DNA of 64,000 bases from a virus. Location of the stretch: the IMG/VR virus record IMGVR_UViG_3300008448_012223. One strand, written 5' to 3'. The position numbers and the translations under genes are program-made. Of the stretch, positions 6,247 through 49,942 are shown piece by piece (position 1 is the stretch's first letter; each line of letters begins with the position of its first letter). The notes beneath the pieces are model-generated. The model saw only the letters and a program-made list of their open reading frames with translations, had not been told where the DNA came from and did no database searches.

Positions 6247-6576
6247 TTAGTCCCTTGCGCTTTTCCCCTCGGCCACATCTGCAAATGGAGTAATAGGAAT
6301 GTGGCTATAAACTTCGGCATTCTTTGCCCGAGCTTGGCGGAGATCGTAGCCTGTTTGAAGATTCAGCCAAAACTGAGGACTGTTACCGAAATATCGTGAC
6401 AGACGCAAAGCTGTATCCGCAGTGATACTACGCTTACCCGCTAAAATCTCACCGATACGAGTTTGAGCTACGCTTAAATCTTTGCTCAGTCTGTAGGGGG
6501 TAATATTGAGCGGTTCCAGAAAATCTAACTTGAGGATTTCACCGGGATGAATATTGGGTAAATGGTCGCTGTTCAT
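6247..6576 (-). CDS. higA: HigA-family antitoxin (XRE HTH), no adjacent toxin
   Basis: IHPGEILKLDFLEP, ITADTALRLSRYFGNSPQFWLNLQ. Confidence 0.9.
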   Translation of the reverse strand: MNSDHLPNIHPGEILKLDFLEPLNITPYRLSKDLSVAQTRIGEILAGKRSITADTALRLSRYFGNSPQFWLNLQTGYDLRQARAKNAEVYSHIPITPFADVAEGKSARD

Positions 6577-6932: not shown

Positions 6933-7422
6933 TGAATAATCTCCTGTTAATATCAGATGATAGGAAAGCCTCTAACCAGACAGGGCGGGGCTCTATAAGA
7001 TAACAGGCCCGCGCTGCGATAAGAGGATGATAGAAGTAGGGTAAGAACTCTAGCTGAGCTAGAGCCTCTATATGCTGAGGTGTAGCTATACCCCTATGAT
7101 CTAGTATACCCAGGGTAGGGTAGCGCTCGTGATATATATTTAGGTTATAGTCATGCAGATACTCAGTAGTATCTAGACAGTACCAGGCAGCGCCAGAGCG
7201 GGGCCGCCCCATATCAGGTAGGTAGCCTGTTATAATCGGCGGGCTTTCATTATCCTCACGTAGATACTCTATGGCACGCCGATACATACGCCACTCCTGG
7301 GCCCAGCCCGACTGTAGTGTTATAGTAACAGCACTATAGCGGCCATCAGCGTAACGCCCTACATAATAGGGGTATATCATACAATCGCGAGCAGGTATAC
7401 TCACGTGATAATTAGTCATCAC
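6922..7422 (-). CDS. hypothetical protein
   Basis: ORF overlapping the primase stop codon. Confidence 0.55.
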   Translation of the reverse strand: MMTNYHVSIPARDCMIYPYYVGRYADGRYSAVTITLQSGWAQEWRMYRRAIEYLREDNESPPIITGYLPDMGRPRSGAAWYCLDTTEYLHDYNLNIYHERYPTLGILDHRGIATPQHIEALAQLEFLPYFYHPLIAARACYLIEPRPVWLEAFLSSDINRRLFNVC

Positions 7423-8639
7423 GATCCGAATAGTAGAGAGGCATATTCAAGGGGCCCTAATTGATTATCTACATAAGGAGCCAGTAGCCCTAAGGGGGAA
7501 TGAGTAGCAGTCAATACCCGCAATATATCTACGTGATGACTAATGTCGGGCCCCCATTGAGCTAGTAAATCATCTACGAATAATATGCGGTTAGCATTGA
7601 TAGTATCAGCAGCATTAACGCGAGGCTCTGCTACCAACCACTCATTAATATCTTTATAATCAGCAACCATATACGTCATAAGCTCAGCTAATGGTAAGTT
7701 AACCTGTAGCTGAACTAGTTGAGGTATGATACGCACCCAGCTCTTATATACACCGGCATGAGTAGGATGATCATCGCTATACTTATCTGAGTCGAATATA
7801 AATGTGATACGACGGAAGGGCTTGAACTTACTGGTGTGACATAATAGATACTCCAGACCCAATAGTCCCACTACAGGTAAACCACGACCTATTAGTGATG
7901 TGGCATCAGGCGGGCCCTCAACTATATATAGCTCGCGAGCTGGGTGCTTACTATACTCCTTAAGACAATGTTCTAGATAGAGATAGCGCTTACTATTAAT
8001 AGCGGCCCGCGTATCCTTATAGCGGGGGGCCCTCTCACTACTACCTATATAGCGACCAACCATATGGACTAGATGGCCTCGTGTATCTCGTATAGGGAAT
8101 ATAATGCGTTCCCTATAGTAATCCTCGCCGTCCTCCTTAATCAGACCCTCGCGGGCTAATGCCTCATGATCTATATCGAATTGACGTAGACCACTAGGAG
8201 GAGCATACCCTATACCAATGCTACGAGCTAGATCGAGGGACCAGCCCCGCCGCAGTATATAATCCTGAGCAGCAGGCGTAGTATCAAAATAATAATGATA
8301 GGCCTCTAGCGCGCTCTCTAGTACTATACTGCGAGCATCCATAACCTCGCGGGCCTGACGTATACCAGCGCGGGCCTCTAACTGCTGCATAGCCCCAGCA
8401 TAATCAAGCTTAGTATGCCAGCGCCAGGCATTGACTAGACCCATACCTGCGTTCAACTCACAACTAGTCCTCCAGCACTTCATATAGTGCGGATACACGC
8501 TCAGCTTACCGCGGCCCCCACAAGCAGGGCAATCATTAGTACCATGCCGTAGATTTAGTAGCTCTGGTATAGTTAGCCGCTCCATTATCAGTTGCTCATT
8601 CTCTCTCGTCACCGCTCTCCGTATATTGGATGAATGCAC
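7419..8639 (-). CDS. dnaG: DnaG-like DNA primase
   Basis: CPACGG zinc-binding motif, RIIFPIRD..G..V..VGR, Toprim YIVEGPPDA and FDSD. Confidence 0.85.
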   Translation of the reverse strand: MHSSNIRRAVTRENEQLIMERLTIPELLNLRHGTNDCPACGGRGKLSVYPHYMKCWRTSCELNAGMGLVNAWRWHTKLDYAGAMQQLEARAGIRQAREVMDARSIVLESALEAYHYYFDTTPAAQDYILRRGWSLDLARSIGIGYAPPSGLRQFDIDHEALAREGLIKEDGEDYYRERIIFPIRDTRGHLVHMVGRYIGSSERAPRYKDTRAAINSKRYLYLEHCLKEYSKHPARELYIVEGPPDATSLIGRGLPVVGLLGLEYLLCHTSKFKPFRRITFIFDSDKYSDDHPTHAGVYKSWVRIIPQLVQLQVNLPLAELMTYMVADYKDINEWLVAEPRVNAADTINANRILFVDDLLAQWGPDISHHVDILRVLTATHSPLGLLAPYVDNQLGPLEYASLLFGS

Positions 8640-8984
8640 TATAATAACTAAGCTTAAACTTTAACACTAATACATATCGCCTGTTAATGGCAATATGCTC
8701 GAGATAAGTGATGTCACTTACCCGTGGCCCGTTCCATAAGAATATCTCGGATAGTTTTTTCAACAGGTACCTTAATATACTACTACCGCCAACGTCTAGG
8801 GCCACCCCACGTCATCCATACTACTGTTCTTAAGCGATACCTAACGAATTTCTAATTGACTAACATCAAAATCACCGCCATTTGGCAGAGTTTTCCCTGA
8901 AAAAAGATGCTGTTGCTTGCGAAGCCATGATATTAGATGATTGTGTTAATTTTAAACGCTTTAGTCTGAGTCCATATTTTAATT

Positions 8985-9475
8985 TCAATTAAATGTAAAA
9001 AGTTTGTCGATAAAACTTGATATAGTTTCTGCTATTTCCTCTGTTTTATCACGAATAAAGGTAATCTCTTCCTGTTTGTCAGAGATTCCAAAACTTGAGT
9101 AGTATCCATCATCTGGATCATCATACGCTCTACATATAGCTATTTCTTTTATTTTTCCTGTTCTTAAATCAAATATCGTACCAGTTACTCTGGTTTTTGG
9201 TATTAAGCTAAAGCTTGGTACAAAACCACAAAAAACCTTGACATGGGCTACCGTCTGACAATCTAAAAGAACCTTAGCATTACCTGTTAGGTAAATTTGT
9301 TGTTCAAACTTTAGTTCCCATTCTGACCAAAGAAAGTTTTTAAACGACCAACTGTTCCAATCAGAATTGTCGTTATATTCTTTGTGACAAAAAGCCGCAA
9401 TTTTTTTAAGTATATCTATTTTTTTGGTCCTTCTATAGCTTTTTGCCTTTTAAAAAACTCTTCTGCTGTTGTCAT
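8985..9475 (-). pseudogene. frameshifted hypothetical gene, possible paralogue of 9472..9918
   Basis: ATG at 9475 meets TAG just after an A7 run; the shifted frame stays open (IDILKKIAAFCHKEY...) to TGA at 8985. Confidence 0.4.
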
Positions 9476-9918
9476 AGTGTCACCTCGGTTTGTATTTCAG
9501 TTTCGATAAATTCATAAATATCAATCATAATTCGTGTTCCTTTTTTACGCCATAGATTTAATTCTCCATGTTTAGCAGTCCCACTTTTCTTGAATGAGAT
9601 TTTACTGTTTTTTCTATCATTTATCCATACAAAAAAACTTCCTTCCCAATCTAAATTAGAAATAGTAGATCGACCTTCTATGTAATTTCTAAAATCGCTA
9701 GGTGAACCGTCACTACTATAAAAGTTGTTACTATTGATACTTATATCTATTTGTATTCCATTTATAGAATTAAGAATAGGGCGATACCCGTAAATCATGT
9801 CTTGAGTTCTGCCTAAAGATGTAAATGACCACTTTAGCTCTGGGTAAGTTTTTTGGCAGAAATTGAATATTTTTTGGGCTGTTTCTTGTTTGTTCATTAT
9901 ATGAAGATCAGAATCCAT
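9472..9918 (-). CDS. hypothetical protein in AT-rich insert
   Basis: ORF; composition differs from the flanking core genes. Confidence 0.55.
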   Translation of the reverse strand: MDSDLHIMNKQETAQKIFNFCQKTYPELKWSFTSLGRTQDMIYGYRPILNSINGIQIDISINSNNFYSSDGSPSDFRNYIEGRSTISNLDWEGSFFVWINDRKNSKISFKKSGTAKHGELNLWRKKGTRIMIDIYEFIETEIQTEVTL

Positions 9919-10029
9919 CTTAAGCGAAGCTACACCTAAACGACTTTGTATTATGCAAAAAATTCCAGTCTGTAATAAAACAGGGCAAGTCTGAAAGAAT
10001 TACAATCATAAAACTTGCGTATTAAGTTG

Positions 10030-13000
10030 TCTGTTCCAATGTAGGGTTCAGGCATAAACATAGAGGCCTTCAGCTTATTGTGCAGAGATCAATCACTACA
10101 ATTAATAGTCTTCATCGAAATAATTGTATAGCATTCTATAGTAAAATTGATCTATAAGAGTAATAAGTATAAAGGCCTTGACCTTATTGTTGAGAGTCCA
10201 GTCGAAAATCCAATAGTTAGAAATAGTCTTCATTCAAACAAACCCTTATGATTCAATCTAGAGTAAAACGAACCGACATGATTCCTACTCATTAAATAAG
10301 ACCGGGTTACTAAATAACTTGCAGGCTCAATAAGCATAGAGGCCTTAAGCTTATTGTGTAGAGACCAATCATTAATCATAATCATCTTCATTGAAACTAT
10401 CTTCATTGAAATAACCGTCTTTATGTATAATGTTATACTTACTCATTCTCATCTAGAATGTGTTAGACAATACACTTACCAGTCTATAGTAAAACTGGTC
10501 GACAGAGGTAATAAGTATAGAGGCCTTCAGCTTATTGTGCAGAATCCAAATATTACAATTTAGTCTTCATCGAAATAATTGTATAGCAGTCTATAGTAAA
10601 ATTGATCTATAAAAGTAATAAGTATAGAGGCCTTGAGCTTATTGTCGAGAGTCCAGTGGTAAAGCAAACTCAATTTGAAATAATCATTATTACACAGAAC
10701 CCAATTATTATATAAAATCCAATAAGTAGAAATTCTCTTCATAAAAACAAACTCTTATAATTCAATCTAGAGTAAAACGAACCGACATAATACCTGCCCA
10801 TTAAATAAGACTCGGTTACTAAGTAATTTGCCCCAACGGAAAACTCAATAAGCATAGAGGCCTCAAGCTTATTGTGCAAAGACCAATAATCATTAATCAT
10901 CTTCATCTAAATAACCGTCCTCATATTCATCGAATTGCCCATCCTCAAGATAATAATCGCCCTCATCTAGAATATCATCCTTATCTAGGATGTTTTCTAA
11001 CATATTTACCAGTCTACAGTAAAACCGGAAGATAGAGCCGCAACACTCGCTTAGTTTAGGAGTATAAATCTCGAGACCCATCTCTTCATAATAATGAAAC
11101 AAGCGCAAGGCATTGAGATAATCATTATTCAAAATCCAAGGTAACAGACAATCGTTAGAAATATTCTTCATTGAAGTAATCGCTCTCATCTAGAGCGTTA
11201 TATAATCTAGAGTAAAACAAACCGATGTAGTACCTGCTTATTAAATAAAACCTAGGCACTAAGCCGGTTGCCCTAGCGAAAGGCTTAATAAGCATAGAGG
11301 CTCTAAGGTTATTGTGTAGAGTCCACTCGTCACATATAATAGTCTTCATAAAAACATACTCCTAGCCAGTTACCCAATCTGAAGTAAAACAAAGATGTCG
11401 AAGCAGACACCCAAAAAATACTGTAATGCATAGCAAGGTTAAAATAATTATGATTATAATACTTTCTTACATTTATATCAGTGGAAGGCTCTCTACTAGA
11501 TATAGATGCCATAAGCTTATTATTAAGCATAGGCCAATAATCAATCATCTTCATCGAAATAACCACCCTCATCTAGAACGTTATATAACATATTTGCCAG
11601 TCTATGATAAAACCTGGCGGGCCCTCTATATACAATAAAGATGAAGCTATAGTATAAACTTTCACCATTTGCTAATTTTAGCTTGTCAGTAATAGTAAGT
11701 ACACCCCCTTTATTGCTATGAATATAATGACAAAACAGGTTGTTACAATTAACCATCTTCATTGAAGTAGTCATCCTCATTTAGAATATCATTATCATCT
11801 AGAGCGTTATATATAAAAGCCACTAGTCTATAGTAAAACTCGCCGGTAGGGTTAATATGTGTGTGGCCCTTCAACTTATCACACACATTCCAGTAGTAAA
11901 ATAAGGTAATGTCATACAAACAATCGTTAGAAATATTCTTTATTGAAGTAATCACTCTCATCTAGAGCGTTATATATAAAAACCACTAGTCTATAGTAAA
12001 ACAAGTTGATAGCGTTAATAGGTATAGAGGCTTTATGCTTATTATACACATTCCAATTGTACAGAATCAAGTTATAAAACAAAGCAAGCCCGAGATCATT
12101 ATCAATCATCTTCATAGAGTGTATACTTATATAGAATATTGTATATCACAGCTGTTAGTTTATAGTAAAACCAGTCGATAGAGCACCTGCTAAATTTAGG
12201 AATATGAGTCTCGATGGTCACATCCTCATAATAATAAAACAAGTAATTAAGCCTGTTACAACTAATCCATCTCATTGAAATAACCGTCCTCATCTAGAAT
12301 GCTATATAACACATCTTCTAATCTATGATGAAACAGATTGATAGAACCATGGAACCTGTCTAATTCAGGTATATAAGTTATAAGCCACATACCCTCATAA
12401 CATATTAATAATCCGTGATGGTCAGCTGGCAGATCAGTAATAGATATAGGTATATTCAACTTATTACGTGGGGCTCAATTGTTACAATTAATTATCTTCA
12501 TCGAAATAACCGTTCTCATCTAGAATGTTATATAACTCATCTCCTATATAAAACAGGTTGATAGAACCATGGTACCTGAATTAGTCAGGTACAGGAGTTG
12601 TAAAGACACATACCCTCATACAATAAAACAGGGCGTCACAATTAACCATCTTCATTGAAATAATCATCCTCATCTAGAATGTTATATAACTCATCTCCTA
12701 ATCTATGATAAAACAGGTTGATAGAACCATGGAACCTGTCTAATTCAGGTATATAAGTTATAAGCCATATACCCTCATGACAATAAAACGGGGCGTCACA
12801 ATTAATCACCTTCATCGAAATAATCGTCCTCATCTAGAATGCTATATAAATGTTCTAATCTATGATAAAACAGGTTGATAGAGCCAGAGAACTTACTTAA
12901 TTCAAGAGTATAGGTATCGAGATCCATGTTCTCATAATAAAACAAGGCAATATAATAATCGAGCTTAACTAATAAGTCACTTATCTGAATGTGCTCGTCA

Positions 13001-16000
13001 CAGTTAATCACTCTCATTGAAGTAATCGTCCTCTCTATTAAGAAAGCTATATATTACAAGTTCTACTAATCTATAATAAAAAAGTCTTCCAGGACTATAA
13101 GCAAAATACAATTTGATTAATAATTTACGTAGGTCAACGGGCAGATCAGTAATAGGTATATTCAAGTTATTACGCGGAGCCCAGTCATTACAATTAATCA
13201 TCTTCATCGAAATAATCCCCCTCCCCTAGAAAGTCATATAACAAACATGCTAGTTTATAATAAAACAAGTCGATAGGAACATGTAACTTGTCCAATTCAG
13301 GGATATAGGCCCCGAGACCCATGCTTTCATGGTAGTAACGATAGAACCATAGATAGTATAGATTATCACCATTTGGTAAAATCGGCGGGTCAATATATAT
13401 ATTCAGTTTACTACTATGAGGCGCCCAATCGTTACAATTAATCATCTTCATAGAAATAATGGTAGGTTATAGTAGGCTCAGATAGGTTATGGTAAACCCA
13501 AGCGACTCCTCTGACATAAAAGTTATCGTATAAACTATTATGGTTTGCTATCAACGGGTTAGTAATAGGTGTAGATACACCTAACGTATTACGTGGGGCC
13601 CAGTCATTACAGTTAATTATCTTCATATAATTAATTGTCCTCATCTAGAATGTTATACAACACTACTCCCGCTAGTCTATGGTAAAACCTGGCGGGCCCC
13701 CCAGCGTTATAAGTATGAAAGTTATAGTTATAGAAACTGTAGTATAAACTATCACTGTCTACTAAAATCGACGGGTCAGTAATATATTTATTCAGTTTAC
13801 TACGTGAAGGCCAACCGTTAATCATATTCATAAAAATATAACAATCTATGGTAAAACCAAGCAGGCCCTCCACCATGATAAAGATAGAAGTTATAGAATA
13901 ACTTATTATTATCTGCTATTGGAAGAACAATAGTAGGTACAGGTGCATTCATACGGAGCCCATTTAAATTACGCGGAGTCCAACCATTACAATCAATCTT
14001 CTTCATATAATTAATTGTCCTCATCTAGAATGTTATATGATGCTACTCTTTCCAGTATATAATAAAACAGCACCCCATCATAAAAGCTATAGTATAAATT
14101 ATCAACGCTCGCTAGAGGCGGATTAGTAATAGGTATGTATGAAGTCCACGCATGCGGGTCTCTTCTATTACGAGGAGCCCAATTGTCAGAATTAATCTTC
14201 TTCATAGAAATAATGGTAGGGCCACTATAGTATAAAACATAGCAAGCCCCCCATCATCATTATAAAGATAAAAGCTATAGTATAAATTATCAACGCTCAC
14301 TAGAGGTGGATTAGTGATAGTGAGTACGTATGGAGCCACATGCGGGTCTCTTCTATTACGAGGAACCCAATTGTCAGAATTAATCTTCTTCATCGAAATA
14401 ATCATTCTCATATAGAACGTTATATAATACTATCCCCGACAGTCTATAGTAAAGTATAGCAAGTCCTCCAGAATTATAAAGATAGAAGCTATAGTATAAA
14501 TTATTGATATTTGCTACTGGCGGGGCAGTGATAGGTACAGGTACATTCCACTCATACGGGGCCCAGCAATTTGGATTAATTGTTTTCATAGAGATAGTTA
14601 TCCTGACCTAAAATATCAATATACCAGTCTATGTTAAAGCGCGCTGATAAGAGCGCAGTTTATAGGCCAGTCTATAGTAAAATTGGAAGATAGAGCCACA
14701 GCACTTGTTTAATTCAGGAGTATAAATCTCGAGACCCAGCTCTTCATAATAATAAAACAAGTACAAAGCATTGAAATAATCATTATTCAAAATCCAATTG
14801 TTACAACTAATCGCTCTCATCGAAATAATCATCCTCATATAGAATATCGTATATCACAGTTCTTAGTCTATAGTAAAACCCGCCGGTAGAGATAATAAGT
14901 ATACGGGCCTTTAGCTTATTCTTGATAGTCCAGTTGTAAAACAAAGCAAGTTTGAAAACATTACAATTAATCATCTTCATAGAATATATATTTATCTACT
15001 ATGTGTATATACAGTCTATAGTAAAATCGGTCGACAGCATAAAACCTTAATTCAGGAGTATAGGTGAAACCCGCACGCTCACAATAATAAAAAAAGTAAT
15101 TAAGCTTGTTACAACTAATCGCTCTCATTGAAGTAATTGCCCCCCAAGCTTAAGGCCTCATTCAGAAAGCCATATATCACAAATTCTCCCAGTCTATAAT
15201 AAAACCAGGCGAGTCTCCCAGGACTATAAGCAAAATACAATTTGCTTAATAATACCTGTAGGTCAACAGGCGGGTCAGTAATAGGTATAGGTATATTCAA
15301 CTGATTACACGGGGCCCAATTATTACAACTAATCATCTTCATCGAAATAATCATCCCCATATAGAATGTCGTATATCACAGCTGTTAGTTTATAGTGAAG
15401 CCGGTCGATAGAGCACCTGCTAAATTCAGGAATATGACTCTCGATGGTCACATCCTCATAATAAAAAAACAAGTACTTAAGCTTATTACAACTAATCGCT
15501 CTCATTGAAGTAATCACCCCCTATTCAGAAAGCCGTATATCCCAAATTCTTCCATTCTATAATAAAACCAGGCGACTTCTCGACTATAAGCAAAATACAC
15601 CTGTAGGTCAACAGGCGGGTCAGTAATAGGTATAGATATCATAGGTAGATTTAACTTATGACGTGGGGTCCAATTGTTACAATTAATTATCTTCATCGAA
15701 ATAATCGTCCTCATCTAGAGTGTTATAATAAAACACGCTTACCAGTCTATAATAAAACCGGTCGATAGTTACAAGACCTGTGTTATCGTAATAATAAGTT
15801 CTAATAGGCCTAGGTATATTCAACTTATTACGTGGGGCCCATTTGTCACTATCATCTATCTTCATAGAAATTGTCCTTAGCTAACAATGTCAGTCTATAA
15901 TAAAACAACTTGATAGAAGCATAAAACTTATTTAATTCAGGTAGATAGACCCAGAGACCCACACTCATACTTTCGTAGTGGTAATGATAAAAGCTATAGT

Positions 16001-17600
16001 ATAAACTACCACTGTTTGCTAAAACCGGCGGATCAGCAGCAGGTATATTCAACTTATTAAGTGAAGGCCAGTCGTTAATAATCTTCATAGAAATAATTCC
16101 CCTCCTCTAGAAAGTCATATAACAAAAAATACTACCCCACGACAGACTATAGTAAAATATAGCAAGTCCTTTAGAATTATAAAGATAGAAGCTATAGTAT
16201 AAATTATTGATATTTGCTACTGGCGGAGCGGTGATAAATACAGGTAAACCCCATTTATACAGAGCCCAGCAATTTGGATTAATTATTTTCATTGAGATAG
16301 TTATCCTCACCTAAAATATCAATGTACCAGTCTATGTTAGAGCGCTGATAAAGCAGCAATTTACAATAAAACCAGTCGACAGAAACATATAACCTGTCTA
16401 ATTCAAGAGTATAGGCCCCAATTATACTTTCATAGAACCATGTATAATATAAATTATCGCCGTTTGCTAGAATCGCTGGGTCAGTAATAGATTTAGATAT
16501 AGACATATCTGGACCCCAATTACTACTAAGCCAACCGTTACAATTAATAATCTTCATAGAGATAATCATCCTCATCTAATGATAGTTTACGGTAAAACCA
16601 AGCAAGCCCTTGATTATTATAAGTATGAAACTTATAGTATAAACTATAACCATCTGTTATTAGAGGATCAGTAATAGGTATAAGTTCACCCCAATATGGA
16701 GCCCATCTAGTATTGCGAAGAGCCCAACCATTATAATTAATCATCTTCATAGAAGTAATTGTCCTCATCTAGAATGTTATATACATTTCCTGCTAGTCTA
16801 TCGTAAAACTTGGCGGGCCCCCCAGCATTATAAACGTAGAAGCTATAATATAAAATATCACTGTTTGTTAAAATTGGCAGGTTAGTAATAGGTATAGGTG
16901 CGTCCCATAAATAATGATTATGGGGTGCCCAACCATTACAATTAATCTTCTTCATAGAGATAATCATTCTCATCTGGCGATAGTTTACGATAAAACCAAG
17001 CAAGCCCTTCATTATTATAAGTATGAAACTTATAGTATAAACTATAACCACTTGTTATCAGAGGATTAGTAATAGGTACAAGTTCACCCCAATATGGAGC
17101 CCATCTAGTATTACGAGGAGCCCAACCATTAGAATTAATAACCTTCATAGAAATAGTCACCCTCATATAGAATATTATATACATTTCCTGCCAGTCTATC
17201 GTAAAACTTGGAGGGCCCCCCAACATTATAACCGTAGAAGCTATAGTATACAGTATCACCGTTTGCTAAAATTGGCGGGTTAGTAATAGGTATAGGCGCG
17301 TCCCATTCATAATACGGCGCCCCATAATCGTTATGGGGCGCCCAATAGTTTGGATTAATCTTTTTCAACAAATGTTTCCTTTTGGTACTATTAATTATCT
17401 TTATAGAAATTGTCCTTAGCGAACAGTGTCAGTATATAATAAAACATCCCAGCATTATAAACGTAGAACCTATAGTATAAAGTATCACCGTTTGCTATTG
17501 GCGGGTTAGTAATAGGTATAGGTGCGTCCCATAGATAATCATTATGAGGCGCCCCATAATGATTATGGGGCGCCCAATAATTTGTACTAATCTCTTTCAT
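10030..17600 (-). repeat. tandem array of about 40 diverged ~190-250 bp coding units
   Basis: 32 overlapping minus-strand ORFs of 60 aa or more in the track plus shorter units; most share M(K/R)xI(N/S)C..W, FYYRL and LDEDDYF(D/N)ED motifs and a conserved DNA junction. Confidence 0.9.
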
Positions 17601-17615: not shown

Positions 17616-18002
17616 TTACTGGACGTAAAACGACTTTTTCTTATAAGCAACCACCTTTAAATACACCTCTAGCAAAGCCTCAATGAGAGACTCTTGTCGA
17701 GAGACAAAACAACGCGAAGTCTCGTAAATATTGGGGTTCACACTAACTGTCACAGTATAACTATTAGGTAATCGTTGAATAACCCAACCATAACCAGAGC
17801 TATCTAGACGCATTTGGAAAAAATAGATCAACTTAGCAAGCGACCCCCGATCTAACAAAAAGGGATCAGGATCAGAGGTAGAGATAGAAATACAATCACC
17901 CCAAGATAGTTGGATAAAAAAGGTATTCCGAAAAGTACCCCACCCATACCGACAAATGTGAGGCTCAGACTTGACCCAATCATGCAAAAATTCAGTAAGC
18001 AT
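17616..18002 (-). CDS. hypothetical protein
   Basis: ORF immediately upstream of the array. Confidence 0.55.
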   Translation of the reverse strand: MLTEFLHDWVKSEPHICRYGWGTFRNTFFIQLSWGDCISISTSDPDPFLLDRGSLAKLIYFFQMRLDSSGYGWVIQRLPNSYTVTVSVNPNIYETSRCFVSRQESLIEALLEVYLKVVAYKKKSFYVQ

Positions 18003-18568: not shown

Positions 18569-18853
18569 TCACCCATTGTTATCAAATAGATTTCTGTAGG
18601 CCTCGTATACGGCATCAGGTGCCTCCTCGTCATTGTATTGTTGAGCCGACTTGAATGTAGATAAGATGCTCAATAGATTAGGGCGGTAGTTAGGGATAAT
18701 ACAATAACCACCATTAATCCATCTAATACACGCGAGACGACGGGTGCCATGAAACCAGCATAAGATCTCATCGCCAAGGGCCGTATGAGATTGATATGGT
18801 TCGCGGAAGTCAGATATACGCCCCCGCAAGTATTTAAGTAAATCTAACATCAT
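18569..18853 (-). CDS. hypothetical protein
   Basis: ORF overlapping the helicase stop codon. Confidence 0.5.
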   Translation of the reverse strand: MMLDLLKYLRGRISDFREPYQSHTALGDEILCWFHGTRRLACIRWINGGYCIIPNYRPNLLSILSTFKSAQQYNDEEAPDAVYEAYRNLFDNNG

Positions 18854-20028
18854 GATTTAGTACCTAACCGATTATAGAATTTAAGGATAGAGGGCTCTAT
18901 ATAGCAACTATCACAGAAGGCGGATCGTGTACCTATCAGGCGGAGGCCGCTATAGTGACGTACACGACTAAGAATAGTATAGAGGCCCCCGCTGAGCCAA
19001 CGTAAATTACTGAGACGAGCCTGTACGTTATTAAGCGTGAGCCCCTGACTACGATGGACAGTAAGGGCATAGCCCAGTCTAACGGGTAAGTAGTGGCAGC
19101 GGCCCAATAGTTTGTTAGTGCCGAGCTCTTTATTATCTCGTGTCACGTATTCAATGATAGTCTCCTGACCGGTACGTTCTACTGTCACCAGTATAGTATT
19201 AGTCATGAGCTCCTTGACTATGGCGATATCGCCATTAGCGTATGTAGGTAGTCTATTACGAAGTAGAATAACGCGCGCGCCTTTCCTTAGCTCTACTGAT
19301 TCAGGTATTTGGCCCCACTCAGGAGCGGTCCTCCCCCCCTTCGGTATAACGTAATTCTTAGTATAGAGGCGACTAGGCCCTTCTAGTTGTGCTAGGTGCA
19401 GGGCGTTATATCTATCTACACTATCATTAGTAGGCAGGATAGTAGTACCTGCGTAGTTATCTTCGAGCTGATTGACAAACTCTACATTATCTATGAACCA
19501 ATCTACTGCTTCGTGAGGCCGCCCTTCTCTTACGCTAGTCAGCGCCTGTATAAAGCCGGGGTCATTCTGGCGCCTGACCTCTCGTAAGTACTGTATATCG
19601 AAGCTCTGTAGGCAGTCTGTTTGATAGACTGGCGTGCTAGTGACCTTTTTATCTGGTACTAGTGGTAACTGACAGAAGTCTCCCACGAGTAGGAGATTCA
19701 TATTTATGTTACTCTTCTCCATTACGTGATGGATAATAGTTAGTTGAGGGCCATGTAACATACTGATCTCGTCTATGACTAGAGTATCAAATGCATTAGA
19801 TATAGCCTGTAGCTGAGTGGTCAGCTTTCCACTAGAAGCGGAGCGTAATAGACTAGTAGTGTCGAAGAACTGGAGGGCCGCGTGAATAGTAGTACCACCT
19901 GCATTAATAGCGCTCACGCCGGTACTACTAGTGATGAGGGCCTTACTCAAACTCTGTATGTATGTTGTCTTACCACTCCCTGCTGGACCCAGCAGCATCT
20001 GATAGGGGCCGTTGAACGTTATCTGCAT
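18850..20028 (-). CDS. PIF1/RecD-like SF1B helicase
   Basis: GPAGSGKTT, IDEISML, GDFCQLP, RRQND, YALTVHRSQGLTL. Confidence 0.9.
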   Translation of the reverse strand: MQITFNGPYQMLLGPAGSGKTTYIQSLSKALITSSTGVSAINAGGTTIHAALQFFDTTSLLRSASSGKLTTQLQAISNAFDTLVIDEISMLHGPQLTIIHHVMEKSNINMNLLLVGDFCQLPLVPDKKVTSTPVYQTDCLQSFDIQYLREVRRQNDPGFIQALTSVREGRPHEAVDWFIDNVEFVNQLEDNYAGTTILPTNDSVDRYNALHLAQLEGPSRLYTKNYVIPKGGRTAPEWGQIPESVELRKGARVILLRNRLPTYANGDIAIVKELMTNTILVTVERTGQETIIEYVTRDNKELGTNKLLGRCHYLPVRLGYALTVHRSQGLTLNNVQARLSNLRWLSGGLYTILSRVRHYSGLRLIGTRSAFCDSCYIEPSILKFYNRLGTKS

Positions 20029-21009: not shown

Positions 21010-21081
21010 AAGACAATTTTAGAAGTCTCTGATAGAATTGAAGTGCTAGGGTAGCTTGGTAGCTAAAGGCCAAAACGGAGC
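21010..21081 (+). repeat. ~72-bp direct repeat of 22261..22333 (promoter plus 5' end of the tRNA-like RNA)
   Basis: gacaattttagaag.ctctgata.aattgaa.tgctagggtagcttggtagctaaaggc..aaacggagc present at both loci. Confidence 0.9.
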
Positions 21082-21085
21082 ATAA

Positions 21086-21117
21086 CAAAAAAACAGAGGG
21101 ACAACCCTCTGTTTTTT
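21086..21117. terminator. bidirectional intrinsic terminator
   Basis: aaaaaacagaggg-acaa-ccctctgtttttt. Confidence 0.8.
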
Positions 21118-21122
21118 ATTTA

Positions 21123-21293
21123 TTAACTTTTGAGCGGTTTAACGTATTCCCAGTCTTTTTCAAAATCTTTTTGTTTAATTCGATAACCATTAGAAAGAAG
21201 AACAAAAATAACATTGTCTGTTAACTGAAATTCTTTGACTTCTGAAATTTCAGAAGTAGTTTTGTTATACACAAGCGGCTTTAAGAATGACAT
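21123..21293 (-). CDS. 56-aa hypothetical protein (below ORF-track cutoff)
   Basis: ATG at 21293 with AGGAG RBS, open to TAA at 21123. Confidence 0.55.
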   Translation of the reverse strand: MSFLKPLVYNKTTSEISEVKEFQLTDNVIFVLLSNGYRIKQKDFEKDWEYVKPLKS

Positions 21294-21351
21294 AGTGAGT
21301 TACTCCTAATTGATTTGATTTTTTAACTAATAACTAATAGCTAATTTTGCA

Positions 21352-21582
21352 CTAATCTAACTCAGATAGTAAGGCTTTAATTGTATTCAATGCAATACCC
21401 TCTGGTGTATATTTTGGTACAGATGATATAGCTAGTAGCTCTTCAAGCATCTGACTAAAAAATTTTAGCTGTTCTTCTTTATCAGAAAAAGGAAAAACTG
21501 TATTACCGACTACATTCGTTAGTTTATCTGACATCAATGAAATTTGAGGATTGCGTGCGTAATAGTCAATTTTTTGGTTCAT
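21352..21582 (-). CDS. hypothetical protein, AT-rich island
   Basis: ORF. Confidence 0.5.
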   Translation of the reverse strand: MNQKIDYYARNPQISLMSDKLTNVVGNTVFPFSDKEEQLKFFSQMLEELLAISSVPKYTPEGIALNTIKALLSELD

Positions 21583-21608
21583 TTAGGTTATTTTAGCTGT
21601 TTCTTAGT

Positions 21609-22007
21609 TTATTCGTAGTCCCAATCAAAGGGAGATTCATTGACATAACCTTCCTTTGCAAGGTAACTAGCTATAACAAGAGATTGTAGAAAAAGACAAT
21701 AGTTTTTCTTAAGAAGCTTAGGTATTGTCACACCTGCTAGTAGCGAAAAAACAACCAGTAATATTCTTGTCTTTAAGTACCAAAAACACCCTACTTTTCT
21801 GTCCTGATCAGCGTCAATAAATGCACTGCTTAAAAGTGCATCTATATCGTCTGATTTAATTGCGCTGTCATAAAATCCTTTTAACACTGTCGATACAAAG
21901 GGTTTTTTTGATGCTTTATTTACCAAACGATTGACGTAATGCTTAGCTTCTCTTGGTAACTCATCGTAGCTTGAATCGATTAATATTCGATAGGTTTGAG
22001 TGTTCAT
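21609..22007 (-). CDS. hypothetical protein, AT-rich island
   Basis: ORF with AGGAG RBS. Confidence 0.6.
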   Translation of the reverse strand: MNTQTYRILIDSSYDELPREAKHYVNRLVNKASKKPFVSTVLKGFYDSAIKSDDIDALLSSAFIDADQDRKVGCFWYLKTRILLVVFSLLAGVTIPKLLKKNYCLFLQSLVIASYLAKEGYVNESPFDWDYE

Positions 22008-22836: not shown

Positions 22837-22919
22837 TGGGTTAAGCTGGATTTGCACCAGCGTGGAATTAAATCTACAGATTTACAGTCTGTCGCCTTCG
22901 ACTACTCGGCCACTAACCC
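22837..22919 (-). tRNA. tRNA-Tyr(GTA), CCA not encoded
   Basis: GGGTTAG/TTAACCC acceptor stem, ACAGA-CTGTAAA-TCTGT anticodon arm, long variable region, GCTGG-TGCAAAT-CCAGC T-arm. Confidence 0.9.
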
Positions 22920-43166: not shown

Positions 43167-43373
43167 TTAGTGATTAGGTGGGGTCGTTGGTTCTAGACCC
43201 CAATTCTTCTTGATGATAGCCGCGAATAGATTATCTCTAAGCATTGCTTGCTTCACCACATCCTTGAGCATATGGCGGGCCTGCTCTAGCGACATCTTAT
43301 CAATAGTATCTGACGTAGCGCGCAGCCGTAATTCTTGCTCAAGTGTTAGTGAATTTGTATCCTTTGTATCCAT
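43167..43373 (-). CDS. nblA: phycobilisome degradation protein NblA
   Basis: LTLEQELRL...IDKMSLEQARHML...Q.M..DNLF..IIK; likely start at MDTK after GGAG. Confidence 0.85.
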   Translation of the reverse strand: MDTKDTNSLTLEQELRLRATSDTIDKMSLEQARHMLKDVVKQAMLRDNLFAAIIKKNWGLEPTTPPNH

Positions 43374-43389
43374 TGGTACTTCTCCTAGT

Positions 43390-46374
43390 TTAACTAGCGC
43401 AGGAATGGCACTCATTCTTCTCAGTTACCTTATCCTGCCATATACTCCGCACGTAATATAATGTCTTGAGGCCCTCACGCCACGCCTGCAGATAGACATC
43501 ATTTAGATCCTTAGCAGTGATTACGGAGTCGAGGCCATAGGCGTGTTCATTGAAGTTGAATAACAACTCAGTGCTAAGACCAGTATCTATCCATTTCTGA
43601 ATAGTTGCTGCAGCAGAGACTACGACACTGGGATGAGTATGGCGGCTCTCCTGATAAAAGTGAAATGCCTCCTTGATATAGAGCGGGACTATGGTATTAA
43701 TACCAGCCCCATTCTTATCAATGGTAAGGCGAGAGAAGACAGGTAAGAAGGAGGCCGTGGTGCCCTGTACCAACGAGGTGCTGGAGTTAGGAGCAGTAGC
43801 CAGGATGTGAGAATTACGAATACCCGATACGATTATACGCTCCATGAGGGCGTACCATCTCTCGGGGTCGGCGCTATTATCGCTGACCCATTCCTTATCG
43901 CGACCACCCAGGATAAGGCCCTTACTCCACTCACTACCAGGGAATGCAGGGTAGGCCCCCCGCTCCTCTGCTAGTTCTACACTAGCCTGAGTAGTATAGA
44001 AGCAGATGTCTTCGAATAGTTTCTCTATGACATCGAGATCCTGATACTTAAGGTGTCTAATAGCTAACCAGTCAGCTAGTCCCATGACACCTACGCCTAT
44101 GGTACGATAGCGGTTCACATGAGCGCGGGCCTCAGGAGTAGGGCTAGTAGTGAGATCACATGCGGCATCTAATAAGCGAACAGCCATACGGCTAACATCA
44201 GCCATCTCATCGTCAACAATACGAGGTAATACTAACGATAGAAGTATACAGCAGTGTGAGTAGCCGCTATTAAATAAACTATATGACTCGACGCAATTGC
44301 CTGTAAGCACTCCATTGAACATGAGCAGGTTACGCTTAGGTTCGTGGGCGCAATACGTATTATCGTGACGACCAGTGAGCTCTACCTCCTTGATAGTTAT
44401 GTAATTAGTATTGTCATACTTAGGTTTAATAGCTATCCACTGAAGGCGATTAGTTCGTAGGCCTAGTTGGTATAACTGATATACTCCGTACCTATCAATT
44501 AATAAGCAGAACTTCTCCTGACGACGCCGAAGCCCTGCCTTATACCGGAGGAAAACCTCAGAGTCCACTCCAAGCGTCTGTAGCATGAGCCGCACTTGTA
44601 ATAGGAAGGGCTTACTGGTATGCGTTATTCTGAAGGTTTGGAAGCTATTATAAGTACCATCAGAATCAAGCAGCCTAGCCAACCACTCTAATCGGGTCTG
44701 AATAGTATAACCATTAATGGGAACAGTTAACTCATTAGGGAGGTCTACATCGCTATCAGAAGACACAAATGGCAGGTCGGACTTAATGAGCTTATCACCT
44801 ATATCGAGATCGCGGGCCTCGACAATATCTATCCCATTACGACGCTGTACGTGAAACTTATGGTAGTAGGTACAGTCAAGAGTTTCTCCATTACTGAAGT
44901 GGACTCGTAGGAGAGGTTGATTCTCCCCTGTCTGGCGTACCGTTACCTCACTCCACTCACTACCGTTCCAAGCGTTGACTACCTGCCCTGCTAGGGTAGC
45001 GATAGGTAGGTGGCCCCGGTCAGTCATAAGAAGTGTCTCAGGGGCTACGCATAGATTTACTCCACCGATGATACCCTCATGCTTATTAGGATTAAACGCA
45101 TTAATGCGGTCTTTAAAAGCCACGTAAGGAGTACCTGTCTCAAGTAGGAGCATCAGCATCTTCTTCCATATAGCCTTAGCGCTGACCTTCTTAACTACGT
45201 CGAGCGGAGGAGCGGAGGAGTTGATATAGGCCTCGATGACGTGATAGGCATCAGTAAATTCATCGCCGTACATATCGGCTAATTGATATCCAAATACATT
45301 CTTGATCTCAGTAGGGCACACTAGGTACCAGTCCTTATCTAGAATTACACGACGCATGAACTCATCAGAGATAATGAATTGCAGCAGGATATCACGAGCC
45401 TTCGTATGCTCACTACCAGCATCACCCCGCAGGTCCATGTACTCAAGGAGGTCAGCATGCCATACGTCTATACCTACGGTACAGGCTCCTGCGCGTACAC
45501 CACGTTGATTAGTAGCGACGATGGTAGCATTGATAATCTTAATCCAAGGGCATACACCACCACTGGCACCCTTCTTCTTACGAATGCGACTACCACGGGC
45601 CCGCACCTTACTAATGCGTACGCCCACTCCACCGCCATTAGCACTCATCGCTGCTAGCTGAGAGATATTATCGAAGATACTCTCGCGACTATCATCGATA
45701 TCGATAATATGACAACTACTGAGGCTACCATCGGCCTGACGCAGGTTACTCATAAGAGGAGTGGCCAGGCTGATCTTACCGAGGCTGAGTAGGTCATAGG
45801 TCTTATGAGCAAAGGTCATGCGCTCGTGGGCGGGCTCCAGCATACTGAGGAGTAGTGCCTGTGTTAGCCACATCTCCTGTAGTAACTCACCCTCTAGTAG
45901 ATAACGCGCTGTGAGTAGATCAGCGCCGCTTATATCAAAGCGCATATCGCGCTCTGGGTCTATCCAGGTGCCGGCTTCAGCAATGTCATCAGCACTATAC
46001 GTGTCTAAGAACTTCTTTATTAGGTCTCCTTCATAGAGGCCCTCAGACCTCAGGTACTCGAAGGCCACTGGATAATTACCATAGAGATAGCCGCGGCGGG
46101 CCTTAACCTTACGCCGCCAATCCCACATACGAAGACGACCACTGACCTTCAGCCAATCAGGATAATGCAAATCGGCTAATTCAGCTGCTGATCTAATCAG
46201 ACCATTCTGTATTGCTTCTGTAGTGGTATCATCATTGAAGCGACGACTAAGTCGCCGAGATAACTTATCGGGGTCTACATCTAGGCCCTCGCAGGCCCAG
46301 TTAATTACCTCGATAGCGCGATTGGCATCATAGGGGGTACGAGTACCATCTGTGTGTATAACGTTGATTTGCAT
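43390..46374 (-). CDS. nrdA: class Ia ribonucleotide reductase alpha subunit containing an intein
   Basis: SLATP, LSSC, NGGGVG, NL|C.E, TAPNSSTS. Confidence 0.92.
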   Translation of the reverse strand: MQINVIHTDGTRTPYDANRAIEVINWACEGLDVDPDKLSRRLSRRFNDDTTTEAIQNGLIRSAAELADLHYPDWLKVSGRLRMWDWRRKVKARRGYLYGNYPVAFEYLRSEGLYEGDLIKKFLDTYSADDIAEAGTWIDPERDMRFDISGADLLTARYLLEGELLQEMWLTQALLLSMLEPAHERMTFAHKTYDLLSLGKISLATPLMSNLRQADGSLSSCHIIDIDDSRESIFDNISQLAAMSANGGGVGVRISKVRARGSRIRKKKGASGGVCPWIKIINATIVATNQRGVRAGACTVGIDVWHADLLEYMDLRGDAGSEHTKARDILLQFIISDEFMRRVILDKDWYLVCPTEIKNVFGYQLADMYGDEFTDAYHVIEAYINSSAPPLDVVKKVSAKAIWKKMLMLLLETGTPYVAFKDRINAFNPNKHEGIIGGVNLCVAPETLLMTDRGHLPIATLAGQVVNAWNGSEWSEVTVRQTGENQPLLRVHFSNGETLDCTYYHKFHVQRRNGIDIVEARDLDIGDKLIKSDLPFVSSDSDVDLPNELTVPINGYTIQTRLEWLARLLDSDGTYNSFQTFRITHTSKPFLLQVRLMLQTLGVDSEVFLRYKAGLRRRQEKFCLLIDRYGVYQLYQLGLRTNRLQWIAIKPKYDNTNYITIKEVELTGRHDNTYCAHEPKRNLLMFNGVLTGNCVESYSLFNSGYSHCCILLSLVLPRIVDDEMADVSRMAVRLLDAACDLTTSPTPEARAHVNRYRTIGVGVMGLADWLAIRHLKYQDLDVIEKLFEDICFYTTQASVELAEERGAYPAFPGSEWSKGLILGGRDKEWVSDNSADPERWYALMERIIVSGIRNSHILATAPNSSTSLVQGTTASFLPVFSRLTIDKNGAGINTIVPLYIKEAFHFYQESRHTHPSVVVSAAATIQKWIDTGLSTELLFNFNEHAYGLDSVITAKDLNDVYLQAWREGLKTLYYVRSIWQDKVTEKNECHSCAS
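44296..45051 (-). mobile_element. intein (252 aa) at the RNR active-site NL/C junction, with a partial LAGLIDADG region
   Basis: Starts CVAPET, ends LTGN followed by C; block B TLDCTYYHKF; WLARLLDSDG. Confidence 0.9.
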
Positions 46375-46375
46375 A

Positions 46376-46810
46376 CTATTGTTGCTGGCTGCCTCTTATG
46401 CTATTTAATAGGTCGAGCCGTTCATGCTCTCCTGTAATATCCTCAATAGACAGGTCCCCACCTCTTCCGAACTCGTCCTCTAGTGTGCTATCTACAATAG
46501 CTAGTCGTCCTTCAAATAGAGATGGAGCACTAGTAGGAGTATAATCGTTAATCCTCATATCAGCATCACTGCCTATATCACCGTGCCCATCAGTATAATG
46601 GCGCGGGGCACTATAGAAAATGTCATTCCTAGATTGCTGGGGCGTATAGCCCGCATCCTTAAGATGCTTATTCATATACTCACTGATAACATGCAGAGCC
46701 TGCTTGAGACTAGCTATACTGCTTGTCAACTCCGATAGCGTCATATTCGCTAATTGTTTCTGATTCGGTGGTGTCACCTTATACTGAGGTTGTGTTGTCT
46801 TATTTGTCAT
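46376..46810 (-). CDS. hypothetical protein
   Basis: ORF. Confidence 0.55.
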   Translation of the reverse strand: MTNKTTQPQYKVTPPNQKQLANMTLSELTSSIASLKQALHVISEYMNKHLKDAGYTPQQSRNDIFYSAPRHYTDGHGDIGSDADMRINDYTPTSAPSLFEGRLAIVDSTLEDEFGRGGDLSIEDITGEHERLDLLNSIRGSQQQ

Positions 46811-47877
46811 ACATACTCACTAATTGTTTCTGAGTCGGTGTCATCAACTTGTATTGCTGCGCTGTCTTGTTTATCATACTCTGACAACTGACTGTAAATA
46901 GAATCTAGCATACTCTGGTTAATACCAGCACGAACTGCTGCTAGGCCCTGGAACTTAGAACCATCAGGTAGGGTATAGAAGGCCCCACTACGAGTAACTA
47001 TACCAGTCTTAACGGCCTGACGTACGATGTCGCCCACTAGATCCACACCCGCCAGCAGATTTCCATTGGGACCTGCATAGGGTAATAGTAAATCTAACTC
47101 TGCCTCACGAAAGGGGATAGCTACTCTATTCTTAGTGTTCTTGACTGTAATAGTCATGCCGGTTATAACGCCCCGCTGCTTAAGGGGATCTCCTCGTCCT
47201 AGCCGCAGTTGTACGGCAGCATTATAGGCCAGGGCCTTACCACCAGTGGAGCCGACGGGGGCCCCATAACTACCTACCTTAGTGCGATACTGATTAATCA
47301 ACACTACGGTAGCACCAGTCTTACTAGCAGCATTGACTACTTGAGGTAACTTCTTACTAAGCAGACGGGCCAATTGAGCAACAGTAGCATCAGCAGAGCC
47401 CTTCTCTATCTCAACAGCGGATATCATATTCGCTACTGAATCAATAACGACTATTTTGACTAGACCACCGTCTAATAGAGTAATAAGACTATCCATGCCC
47501 TCCTCCCCTGTATCGGGGCGGAACATGGCTATCTGGTCCATCTTCATACCCATCATCCTGGCATAACCAACCTCGAATGACTTCTCGTGATCTAACCACG
47601 CTGCCATGTATCCCTTAGCCTGTAATAGACTAACGCACTGTTTCATAAGTGTGGTCTTACCTACACTAGTCTCACCTGCAATCTCTACTATTTTACCTAC
47701 GGGCCACCCGCCTCCCAATACATAGTCCAATGAGAATATACCACTGGGTATAAAAGTAGTAGGCTCGATAGAACTAGTAGAGCCAAGGCCCCCCATGTAA
47801 TTAGAGCACTTTGCTCTAAGCTTATTGTCCAGCTCTCGAGCAAGCTTAAGTTGCTCTGAGATCTCATTCTTAGCCAT
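46807..47877 (-). CDS. recA: RecA-family recombinase
   Basis: LDYVLGGGWP.G.IVEIAGETSVGKTT, VIDSVA, INQYR, GGKAL. Confidence 0.93.
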   Translation of the reverse strand: MAKNEISEQLKLARELDNKLRAKCSNYMGGLGSTSSIEPTTFIPSGIFSLDYVLGGGWPVGKIVEIAGETSVGKTTLMKQCVSLLQAKGYMAAWLDHEKSFEVGYARMMGMKMDQIAMFRPDTGEEGMDSLITLLDGGLVKIVVIDSVANMISAVEIEKGSADATVAQLARLLSKKLPQVVNAASKTGATVVLINQYRTKVGSYGAPVGSTGGKALAYNAAVQLRLGRGDPLKQRGVITGMTITVKNTKNRVAIPFREAELDLLLPYAGPNGNLLAGVDLVGDIVRQAVKTGIVTRSGAFYTLPDGSKFQGLAAVRAGINQSMLDSIYSQLSEYDKQDSAAIQVDDTDSETISEYV

Positions 47878-49258: not shown

Positions 49259-49942
49259 CTAAATCTCTGCAAAAATTGCCCCTCGTCGAATTAAATCTTG
49301 TTTTTGTTCAGGGGTGATCCCCGTTGCATCGATAAAGATAGCGTTTTCAACGCCAGCCCCACTCAGGTCGGCCCCACTCAGGTTAGTACTACTTAGGTTA
49401 GCCCCACTCAGGTTAGCCCTCCACAGGTCAGCCCCACTCAGGTCAGCCTCACTCAGGTCAGTCTCACTCGGTTTAACCCCCCACAGGTTACCCCTTCTCA
49501 GGTCAGCCCCACTTAAATCAACTTGTTGTAGAGTTGTCTTATCGATTGTTCCCTCTCGAATTGTTTTAATTAATTCGGCTTTTTCAATAACTTTTGCATC
49601 TGTAGTGAACTCGACTTTTGTGACAACAATTTCGGGCATATCGTCTGGTTTAAGTTTATTGAGAAGGGCTTGCAATTCCCCCGATTGATGTAAATTTGCT
49701 AGGCGCTGGAGTCCACCTTCTGAACCTTCTAAAAATAGCTGAATAGTGCCTTTAAGTTTCACAATAGAAATCATTCCTTTTTGCTCTGTTTGTGGATTTA
49801 GTTTGACCAGTTTAGCATTCTTGAAAAATTCATCATCTAGAAGAGGAATATCTGAATAATCAATATTCTCATCAGAAATTTGCATAAATTTCTCTTGTTG
49901 CTCTTTAAGAGGCGTATCAAGGGAAAATTCAGGGTTGCTCAT
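49259..49942 (-). CDS. BrnA-like N-terminus fused to a pentapeptide-repeat domain
   Basis: IDYSDIPLLDDEFFKNAK; A(D/N)LSG repeats. Confidence 0.75.
   Translation of the reverse strand: MSNPEFSLDTPLKEQQEKFMQISDENIDYSDIPLLDDEFFKNAKLVKLNPQTEQKGMISIVKLKGTIQLFLEGSEGGLQRLANLHQSGELQALLNKLKPDDMPEIVVTKVEFTTDAKVIEKAELIKTIREGTIDKTTLQQVDLSGADLRRGNLWGVKPSETDLSEADLSGADLWRANLSGANLSSTNLSGADLSGAGVENAIFIDATGITPEQKQDLIRRGAIFAEI

Follow-up and report, generated by a model that had tools for sequence, protein, structure and literature searches.

A rapidly changing array of small, overlapping phrog_4393 genes between helicase and primase in Fukuivirus phages of Microcystis

What kind of genetic element is a run of about 40 tiny open reading frames (ORFs) packed end to end in a viral genome? 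The question is raised by IMG/VR virus record IMGVR_UViG_3300008448_012223, of which a stretch of 64,000 nt (the window) was analysed here. The initial annotation, made from the letters alone, had proposed an undescribed system of conserved repeats with variable peptide cargo. We found that the window is a segment of a Fukuivirus genome, about 91% identical to the Microcystis phages Ma-LMM01, MaMV-DC, MaMV-DH01 and their relatives; outside this Ma-LMM01/MaMV group, nothing else among 50,697 phage records searched matched it. The array sits between a Dda-like helicase region and the primase, in synteny with the interval between gp158-160 and primase where Ma-LMM01 carries gp137-gp157 (21 hypothetical genes). 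All seven units tested matched phrog_4393, a family of uncharacterised function, with E-values from 1e-28 to 1.6e-4, and the GenBank equivalents (Ma-LMM01 gp137-gp157, MaMV-DC ORF134-143 and MaMV-DH01 ORF160-178) are all annotated as hypothetical proteins. "Undescribed" is thus right for the function but not for the genes, which are annotated as gp137-gp157 and form phrog_4393. The architecture is real and unusual; its building blocks belong to a family already catalogued, though uncharacterised, whose members entered GenBank with the Ma-LMM01 record. No description of the function or architecture of the gp137-gp157 family was found in the literature searched, which did not include the 2008 genome paper of Ma-LMM01. 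That paper, by Yoshida, reportedly lists some of these ORFs as a paralogous family.

Units were called with a weight matrix for the junction between neighbours and a hidden Markov model (HMM) scan. This yielded 40 co-oriented coding units of 118-270 nt on the minus strand, 36 of them with ORFs of 43-92 aa. The number and orientation given by the initial annotation for 10030-17600 therefore held, but its limit was slightly short, as the last remnant reaches 9951; the MKxIN..W head, the FYYRL motif and the acidic end that it described are all present. Neighbouring units overlap at 31 of the 39 junctions, and the overlap is exactly 14 nt at 24. Four units are broken close to the start: 10570 and 10115 at the distal end, 12655 and 12501 in the centre of the array. 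Decay of the distal end (about 10030-10560) had been suspected, and two units there are indeed broken, but we saw no gradient of decay: distal units are 96-100% identical to those of other phages and conservation is equal across all four quarters of the arrays, so the distal end is not systematically decayed.

Several sequence patterns place the array well outside chance and bear on whether the units are genes. The sense frame contains 5 stops in 1834 codons; the remaining five frames have 121-266. Of 254 non-redundant units, 200 have a length of 1 mod 3, the phase that the 14-nt overlap requires. Between close orthologs, 6 nonsense changes were observed against about 41 expected when lesions on both lineages are counted, a depletion of about 7-fold, or against 21 on a halved, conservative count; 85 of 157 indels were in frame, and radical amino-acid changes reached 0.66 of expectation. 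These patterns show that selection acts on the units as protein-coding genes.

The coupling of one gene to the next resides in a single stretch of about 30 nt, which gives the acidic tail when read in the frame of the upstream gene and, shifted by +1, the MKxIN head (MKMIN in the example junction of Table 1), and which also holds the Shine-Dalgarno sequence, the next start and the stop of the upstream unit. Predicted pairing with the standard anti-Shine-Dalgarno sequence peaks at -4.9 kcal/mol at -18..-10. The Glu/Lys codon at the Shine-Dalgarno ends in G in a ratio of 100:7, compared with 268:272 in unit cores; the P value of this bias is overstated because paralogs are not independent, and we take the bias as the nucleotide-level signature of a ribosome-binding site. 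A polyprotein made by +1 frameshifting was considered and not favoured, because every junction has its own Shine-Dalgarno and ATG. The junction may derive from the end of the 128-aa gene that heads the array, because the 14-nt overlap with unit 1 recurs in some relatives. Besides the window, the head genes of L003, L024 and L025 enter this comparison.

This dual coding bears directly on the earlier proposal that the acidic-aromatic tails mimic the C-terminus of SSB or nucleic acid. The last 12 residues do have a median net charge of -3, with Tyr-Phe at -6/-5 in most intact units. An SSB-like end would carry a terminal Phe preceded by conserved acidic residues; here most units end in Asp or Asn, and 17 of 270 end in Phe. 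Tail Asp residues at -7, -4, -2 and -1 changed 26, 17, 23 and 28 times against 14-17 expected, that is, at or above the neutral rate, swapping with Asn, Gly and Tyr. The only invariant tail residue, Glu at -3, is set by the next ATG, the Glu-Asp codons are the Shine-Dalgarno, the tail as a whole is the next gene's Shine-Dalgarno and start read in the other frame, and many conserved units have no tail. The tail thus appears to be mostly a by-product of gene coupling, which leaves mimicry of SSB or nucleic acid unsupported; we consider that proposal largely refuted and very improbable. At 10893-10990 (minus strand), several local repeats of the 18-24-nt tail motif make one tail longer.

The content of the array changes far faster than its flanks. 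Helicase and primase are 92-96% and 93-98% identical among relatives, yet whole-unit matches were found for only 1-21 of 37 window units per relative, and for only 1-5 in the isolates Ma-LMM01, MaMV-DC and MaMV-DH01. Ten arrays together hold at least 54 shared unit types and 54 singletons. Across phages, blocks of types retain their order while units are gained, lost or duplicated; some units are chimaeras, and others have internal deletions that shorten them to as little as 38 aa. Tandem paralogy, duplication, loss, pseudogenes and chimaeras are all found here, as in a birth-and-death family, and the pattern fits unequal homologous recombination with birth-and-death, the phage UvsX being its likely agent. 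With frames kept, stops depleted, and copy number and content differing between close phages, the protein-coding, variable and expandable repertoire seen by the initial annotation is supported.

A conserved junction with variable cargo is also the layout of an enzyme-driven cassette system, and the comparison with CRISPR or integron arrays had been drawn on that basis. Alignment ends do lie near junctions more often than expected (33% within 20 nt vs 20% if uniform). About 45% nevertheless fall inside units, the breakpoints are diffuse, and there is no polarity along the array. No attC-type hairpin was found at the junctions (mean folding z +0.44 and +0.29, none below -2) and no Rfam match; the Ma-LMM01 annotation has no reverse transcriptase, cas or tyrosine integrase gene, the ORFs of the window having been scanned in part. 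At four-fold sites, A-G changes (56) equal C-T changes (55), showing no adenine bias. A CRISPR would have short non-coding repeats, even spacers and cas genes; an integron a hairpin, a tyrosine integrase and polar, precise insertion; and a diversity-generating retroelement a reverse transcriptase, a template/variable repeat pair and adenine-specific change. The array matches none of these descriptions. It shares a repeated junction and variable cargo with integron and CRISPR arrays but lacks their palindromic site, enzyme, precise breakpoint and polarity, and the cassette explanation is refuted on present data. The array works like an accessory-gene accordion and is not a CRISPR, an integron or a diversity-generating retroelement.

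We then examined how widely the family occurs. It was present at this single locus in 15 IMG/VR loci, the three isolates and two further contigs; complete arrays carry 18-40 units, and the locus measures 3.6-7.6 kb in every complete array examined. The window shares family, locus, junction and motifs with Ma-LMM01, MaMV-DC and MaMV-DH01 and differs from them by its 40 units, compared with 18-26. The Ma-LMM01 genome has no copy outside the array locus. When 1.84 billion representatives were searched with the family profile, 80 matched, of which 78 were members of the family and two were weak and lay in long unrelated proteins; genomic context was checked for two of the 80. The exact junction pattern was absent from 185,579 prokaryote genomes (GTDB), the unit protein found nothing in a plasmid search, and an Atlas search gave no usable match. 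As the initial annotation had supposed, the unit HMM matched no characterised family, phrog_4393 itself being without an assigned function. A link to gp004 through a chance FYDRL stretch was rejected by a negative profile comparison. A transmembrane helix, as in cyanophage hli arrays and small membrane proteins, is not indicated, since 19-residue hydropathy exceeds 1.6 in 2 of 270 peptides.

Selection on the peptides is loose overall and sharply focused. With kappa correction, the replacement rate relative to the synonymous rate (omega) was 1.06 (0.94-1.17) and 0.98, compared with 0.32 in flanking genes; a six-rate model gave 0.91 and a joint codon maximum-likelihood (ML) model about 0.75-0.8, with 1.05 fitting 6.5 log-likelihood units worse. 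An uncorrected NG86 dN/dS of 0.58 was set aside, since under a strong transition bias it overstates purifying selection. By region, omega was 0.12 at the Trp, 0.22 at the motif F/Y/L, 0.79 in the head and 0.86 (0.73-1.00) in the middle. At the motif Tyr, the second motif residue, there were 11 synonymous changes but not one replacement, where 13.4 replacements were expected, or about half as many once conditioning on the motif is taken into account; the motif Leu uses four synonymous codons. No region exceeded neutrality once the locally raised C-terminal synonymous rate was accounted for. Most residues drift at a near-neutral rate, and constraint is concentrated in the Trp and Tyr-helix anchors. 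The dN/dS near 1 that had been named in advance as the mark of a non-coding degenerate repeat was thus observed overall, but it reflects loose constraint on real genes.

An explanation close to that concern, and one we find quite improbable, is a nearly neutral, self-perpetuating repeat whose open frames keep the primase mRNA covered with ribosomes, or whose AT-rich DNA acts as promoter or origin. Neutral-rate change at most residues agrees with it, as does the excess of promoter-like matches (73 vs 48 +/- 7 in shuffles), and the lack of outside homologs is consistent with de novo origin. The -10-like hexamers, however, are Tyr-Asn and Tyr-Thr codon pairs, the chain tolerates interruption by broken units, and complete arrays keep at least 18 units despite headful genome limits. 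Moreover, a neutral repeat does not predict that Tyr, Leu and Trp are conserved despite synonymous variation.

Our preferred reading, held tentatively and at somewhat less than an even chance, is that the array is a lineage-specific Fukuivirus accessory family under birth-and-death whose coupled Tyr-helix peptides bind a host protein. Ribosomes would re-initiate from unit to unit and produce 20-40 small, mostly unstructured peptides. The AlphaFold2 model of the typical intact unit in Table 1 is of low confidence (pLDDT 53), with helices at residues 28-39 and 42-61 and the motif within a helix. The spacing F-Y-x-x-L is that of a helical docking motif, and the working part would be this amphipathic helix, with its invariant Tyr, together with the N-terminal Trp, docking on a host protein or protein class. 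Many copies would supply dose and breadth, leaving single copies dispensable and the remaining residues free to drift. Since the junction and the internal blocks are in register in all units, a homologous crossover, probably made by the UvsX of the phage, would usually yield a new open, coupled gene. The peptides would most plausibly be inhibitors or decoys of a Microcystis defence component; a host target is suggested by the accessory-type turnover and the very large defence arsenal of the host, whose 492 defence genes are barely induced by phage (PMC4103541, PMC5780444). Phage accessory and counter-defence genes are known to amplify by recombination (PMC9391042, PMC13096335). An anti-defence role is plausible.

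The main idea of the initial annotation has a more specific form: a library under an arms race in which every unit type neutralises its own host defence protein or allele, with specificity set by the variable middle. The richness of shared types and singletons suits it, the change of repertoire is near-complete between phages whose flanks are 95% identical, unit types keep their order across continents, and an overall omega near 1 could mask positive sites. We regard it as possible but on the unlikely side, since no region, the middle included, exceeds neutrality with local synonymous rates and the joint ML estimate is about 0.75-0.8, the middle can vanish entirely (the 38-49-aa members P0080 and P0036), and a pseudogene common to four phages persists. 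Unlikely, too, in our judgement is a self-coupling combinatorial library, in which the dual-frame junction would make nearly every crossover yield an expressed peptide and a shifting Tyr-helix repertoire would disarm strain-variable Microcystis defences.

Alternatively, the peptides might act on the phage's own machinery, as replication accessories or as packaged internal proteins like T4 IPI-III. The fixed, co-oriented site between helicase and primase and middle-phase expression like that of replication genes point this way, and the conserved N-terminal head resembles a capsid-targeting sequence by analogy. Against it, partners in the core machinery are conserved (omega 0.07-0.19), which would not lead one to expect such rapid change in the peptides, and the head is weakly constrained and dual-coded; we judge this explanation improbable.

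Several points weigh against binding of a host protein by the peptides. The position between helicase and primase would also suit a replication role. The units have no homolog of known function (no Pfam or PADLOC match; best PDB profile E 5.2), and the same searches revealed no sequence homology to characterised anti-CRISPR or anti-defence proteins. The substitution tests rely on recombining paralogs paired by a spanning tree; their events are thus not fully independent and the estimates are approximate. Translation of the units is predicted from sequence. In published RNA-seq, which is unstranded, Ma-LMM01 gp137-gp157 fall in the middle class B5 with log2 FPKM (fragments per kilobase per million) of about 7.3-9.8 (PMC5780444 Table S3), somewhat lower than primase (10.9) and helicase (about 10) (PMC5780444). 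Array expression is thus middle-phase and not above its neighbours, whereas many anti-defence genes are early.

Known systems offer partial parallels. The T-even internal-protein (ip1) locus and hyperplastic regions contain small genes whose N-terminus is conserved while the body varies, and which recombination exchanges close to tRNA genes; in the array we recognised no cleavable capsid-targeting sequence, and its genes are far more numerous and chained by overlaps. Tandem copy-number change by recombination in an accessory region is likewise seen in T4 dmd-tifA (PMC9391042) and T6 tRNA-Tyr/segB (PMC13096335), but those amplifications are transient, near-identical copies with proven targets, whereas the array is old, diverged, mosaic and apparently chained in translation, with a proposed target. 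AcrID1 of rudiviruses (PMC7689449) is a small viral protein against type I-D systems, and Microcystis NIES-298 has a type I-D system, with cas10d induced in infected cells (PMC5780444). AcrID1 folds as a dimer, whereas the array peptides have no PDB sequence match and no confident fold.

Table 1. Positions of the array, its units and related features in the window.
Feature	Position	Strand	Remarks
40 phrog_4393 micro-genes (gp137-gp157 equivalent)	9951..17600	-	34.7% GC vs 45.0% elsewhere; 11.8% Tyr vs 4.6% in other genes
128-aa hypothetical gene heading the array	17616..18002	-	End overlaps unit 1 by 14 nt in MaMV-DH01, L024, L025
Dda/RecD-like helicase (gp160), upstream flank	18850..20028	-	
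DNA primase (gp134), downstream flank	7419..8639	-	
tRNA-Tyr(GTA), 5 kb upstream of array, same strand	22837..22919	-	
UvsX/RecA-like recombinase	46807..47877	-	Candidate driver of unequal crossing-over
Starts of units 1-10	17600, 17404, 17148, 16955, 16750, 16557, 16292, 16088, 15865, 15696	-	
Starts of units 11-20	15505, 15342, 15128, 14980, 14820, 14589, 14393, 14205, 14006, 13831	-	
Starts of units 21-30	13626, 13451, 13207, 13017, 12815, 12655, 12501, 12275, 12115, 11943	-	
Starts of units 31-40	11762, 11554, 11349, 11171, 10906, 10742, 10570, 10391, 10233, 10115	-	
Unit 1, 69 aa	17391..17600	-	Own strong Shine-Dalgarno (GAGGAGG)
Recent tandem duplication of two units	16531..17306	-	378 nt at 90% identity, 398-nt period
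Typical intact unit, 69 aa	14380..14589	-	Head, Trp, Pro-rich block, LYYSFY block, F/L-Y-Y-R-L helix, tail
Example junction module	13194..13225	-	Shine-Dalgarno -18..-10, ATG at 13207, upstream stop 13196-13194, 14-nt overlap
Two broken central units	12262..12655	-	12655 stops after 24 aa; 12501, a chimaera of two unit types, has TGA in place of its Trp codon
Frameshifted unit	10453..10570	-	Identical lesion in L004, L013, L016
Last unit	9951..10115	-	TGA at Trp position; intact in Ma-LMM01 (gp137), L004, L008

The tRNA-Tyr near the array (Table 1) may serve its Tyr demand, a circumstantial link. Its proximity is not evidence for that link, because phage tRNA-Tyr also counteracts Septu-type defence (PMC13096335). 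Between the end of the array and the primase, an insert of about 1.1 kb (8842-9963) holds an interrupted ORF and a 148-aa orphan ORF (9472-9918); in Ma-LMM01 a transposase-resolvase pair takes its place, and RNA run X5 skips the insert. RNA runs X1-X3 are identical to the window letter for letter and probably its source, and so are not independent evidence; the RNA contigs carry neither strand nor expression level. They give a 989-nt back-joint and loose ends at 21081 in the low-GC stretch 21012-22000, which suggests a repeat or mobile insert.

Elsewhere in the window, all on the minus strand, we noted a HigA-like antitoxin (6247-6576; phrog_1381, HTH_3) within a 512-nt insert absent from a relative's contig; a ribonucleotide reductase alpha of 994 aa with a LAGLIDADG-type intein (43390-46374), where Ma-LMM01 gp006 has 742 aa; an 82-aa ORF, NblA-like by eye, at the position of Ma-LMM01 nblA (gp005) (43167-43415); a host-like pentapeptide-repeat protein of 227 aa (49259-49942); a protein with an RRXRR domain (59368-60465); and a host-type fragment with an FGE-sulfatase domain (63542-63892).

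Ma-LMM01-like phages are model viruses of toxic Microcystis blooms, and their host carries about 490 defence genes. A locus of 3.6-7.6 kb that changes far faster than its flanks is therefore a candidate for tests of host range and counter-defence, and our analysis narrows such tests to the selected parts of the peptides, the Tyr helix and the Trp, rather than the tail. The junction is also a natural and compact way to chain many small genes. If the combinatorial library were true, the shifting peptide repertoire would set the host range of Fukuivirus.

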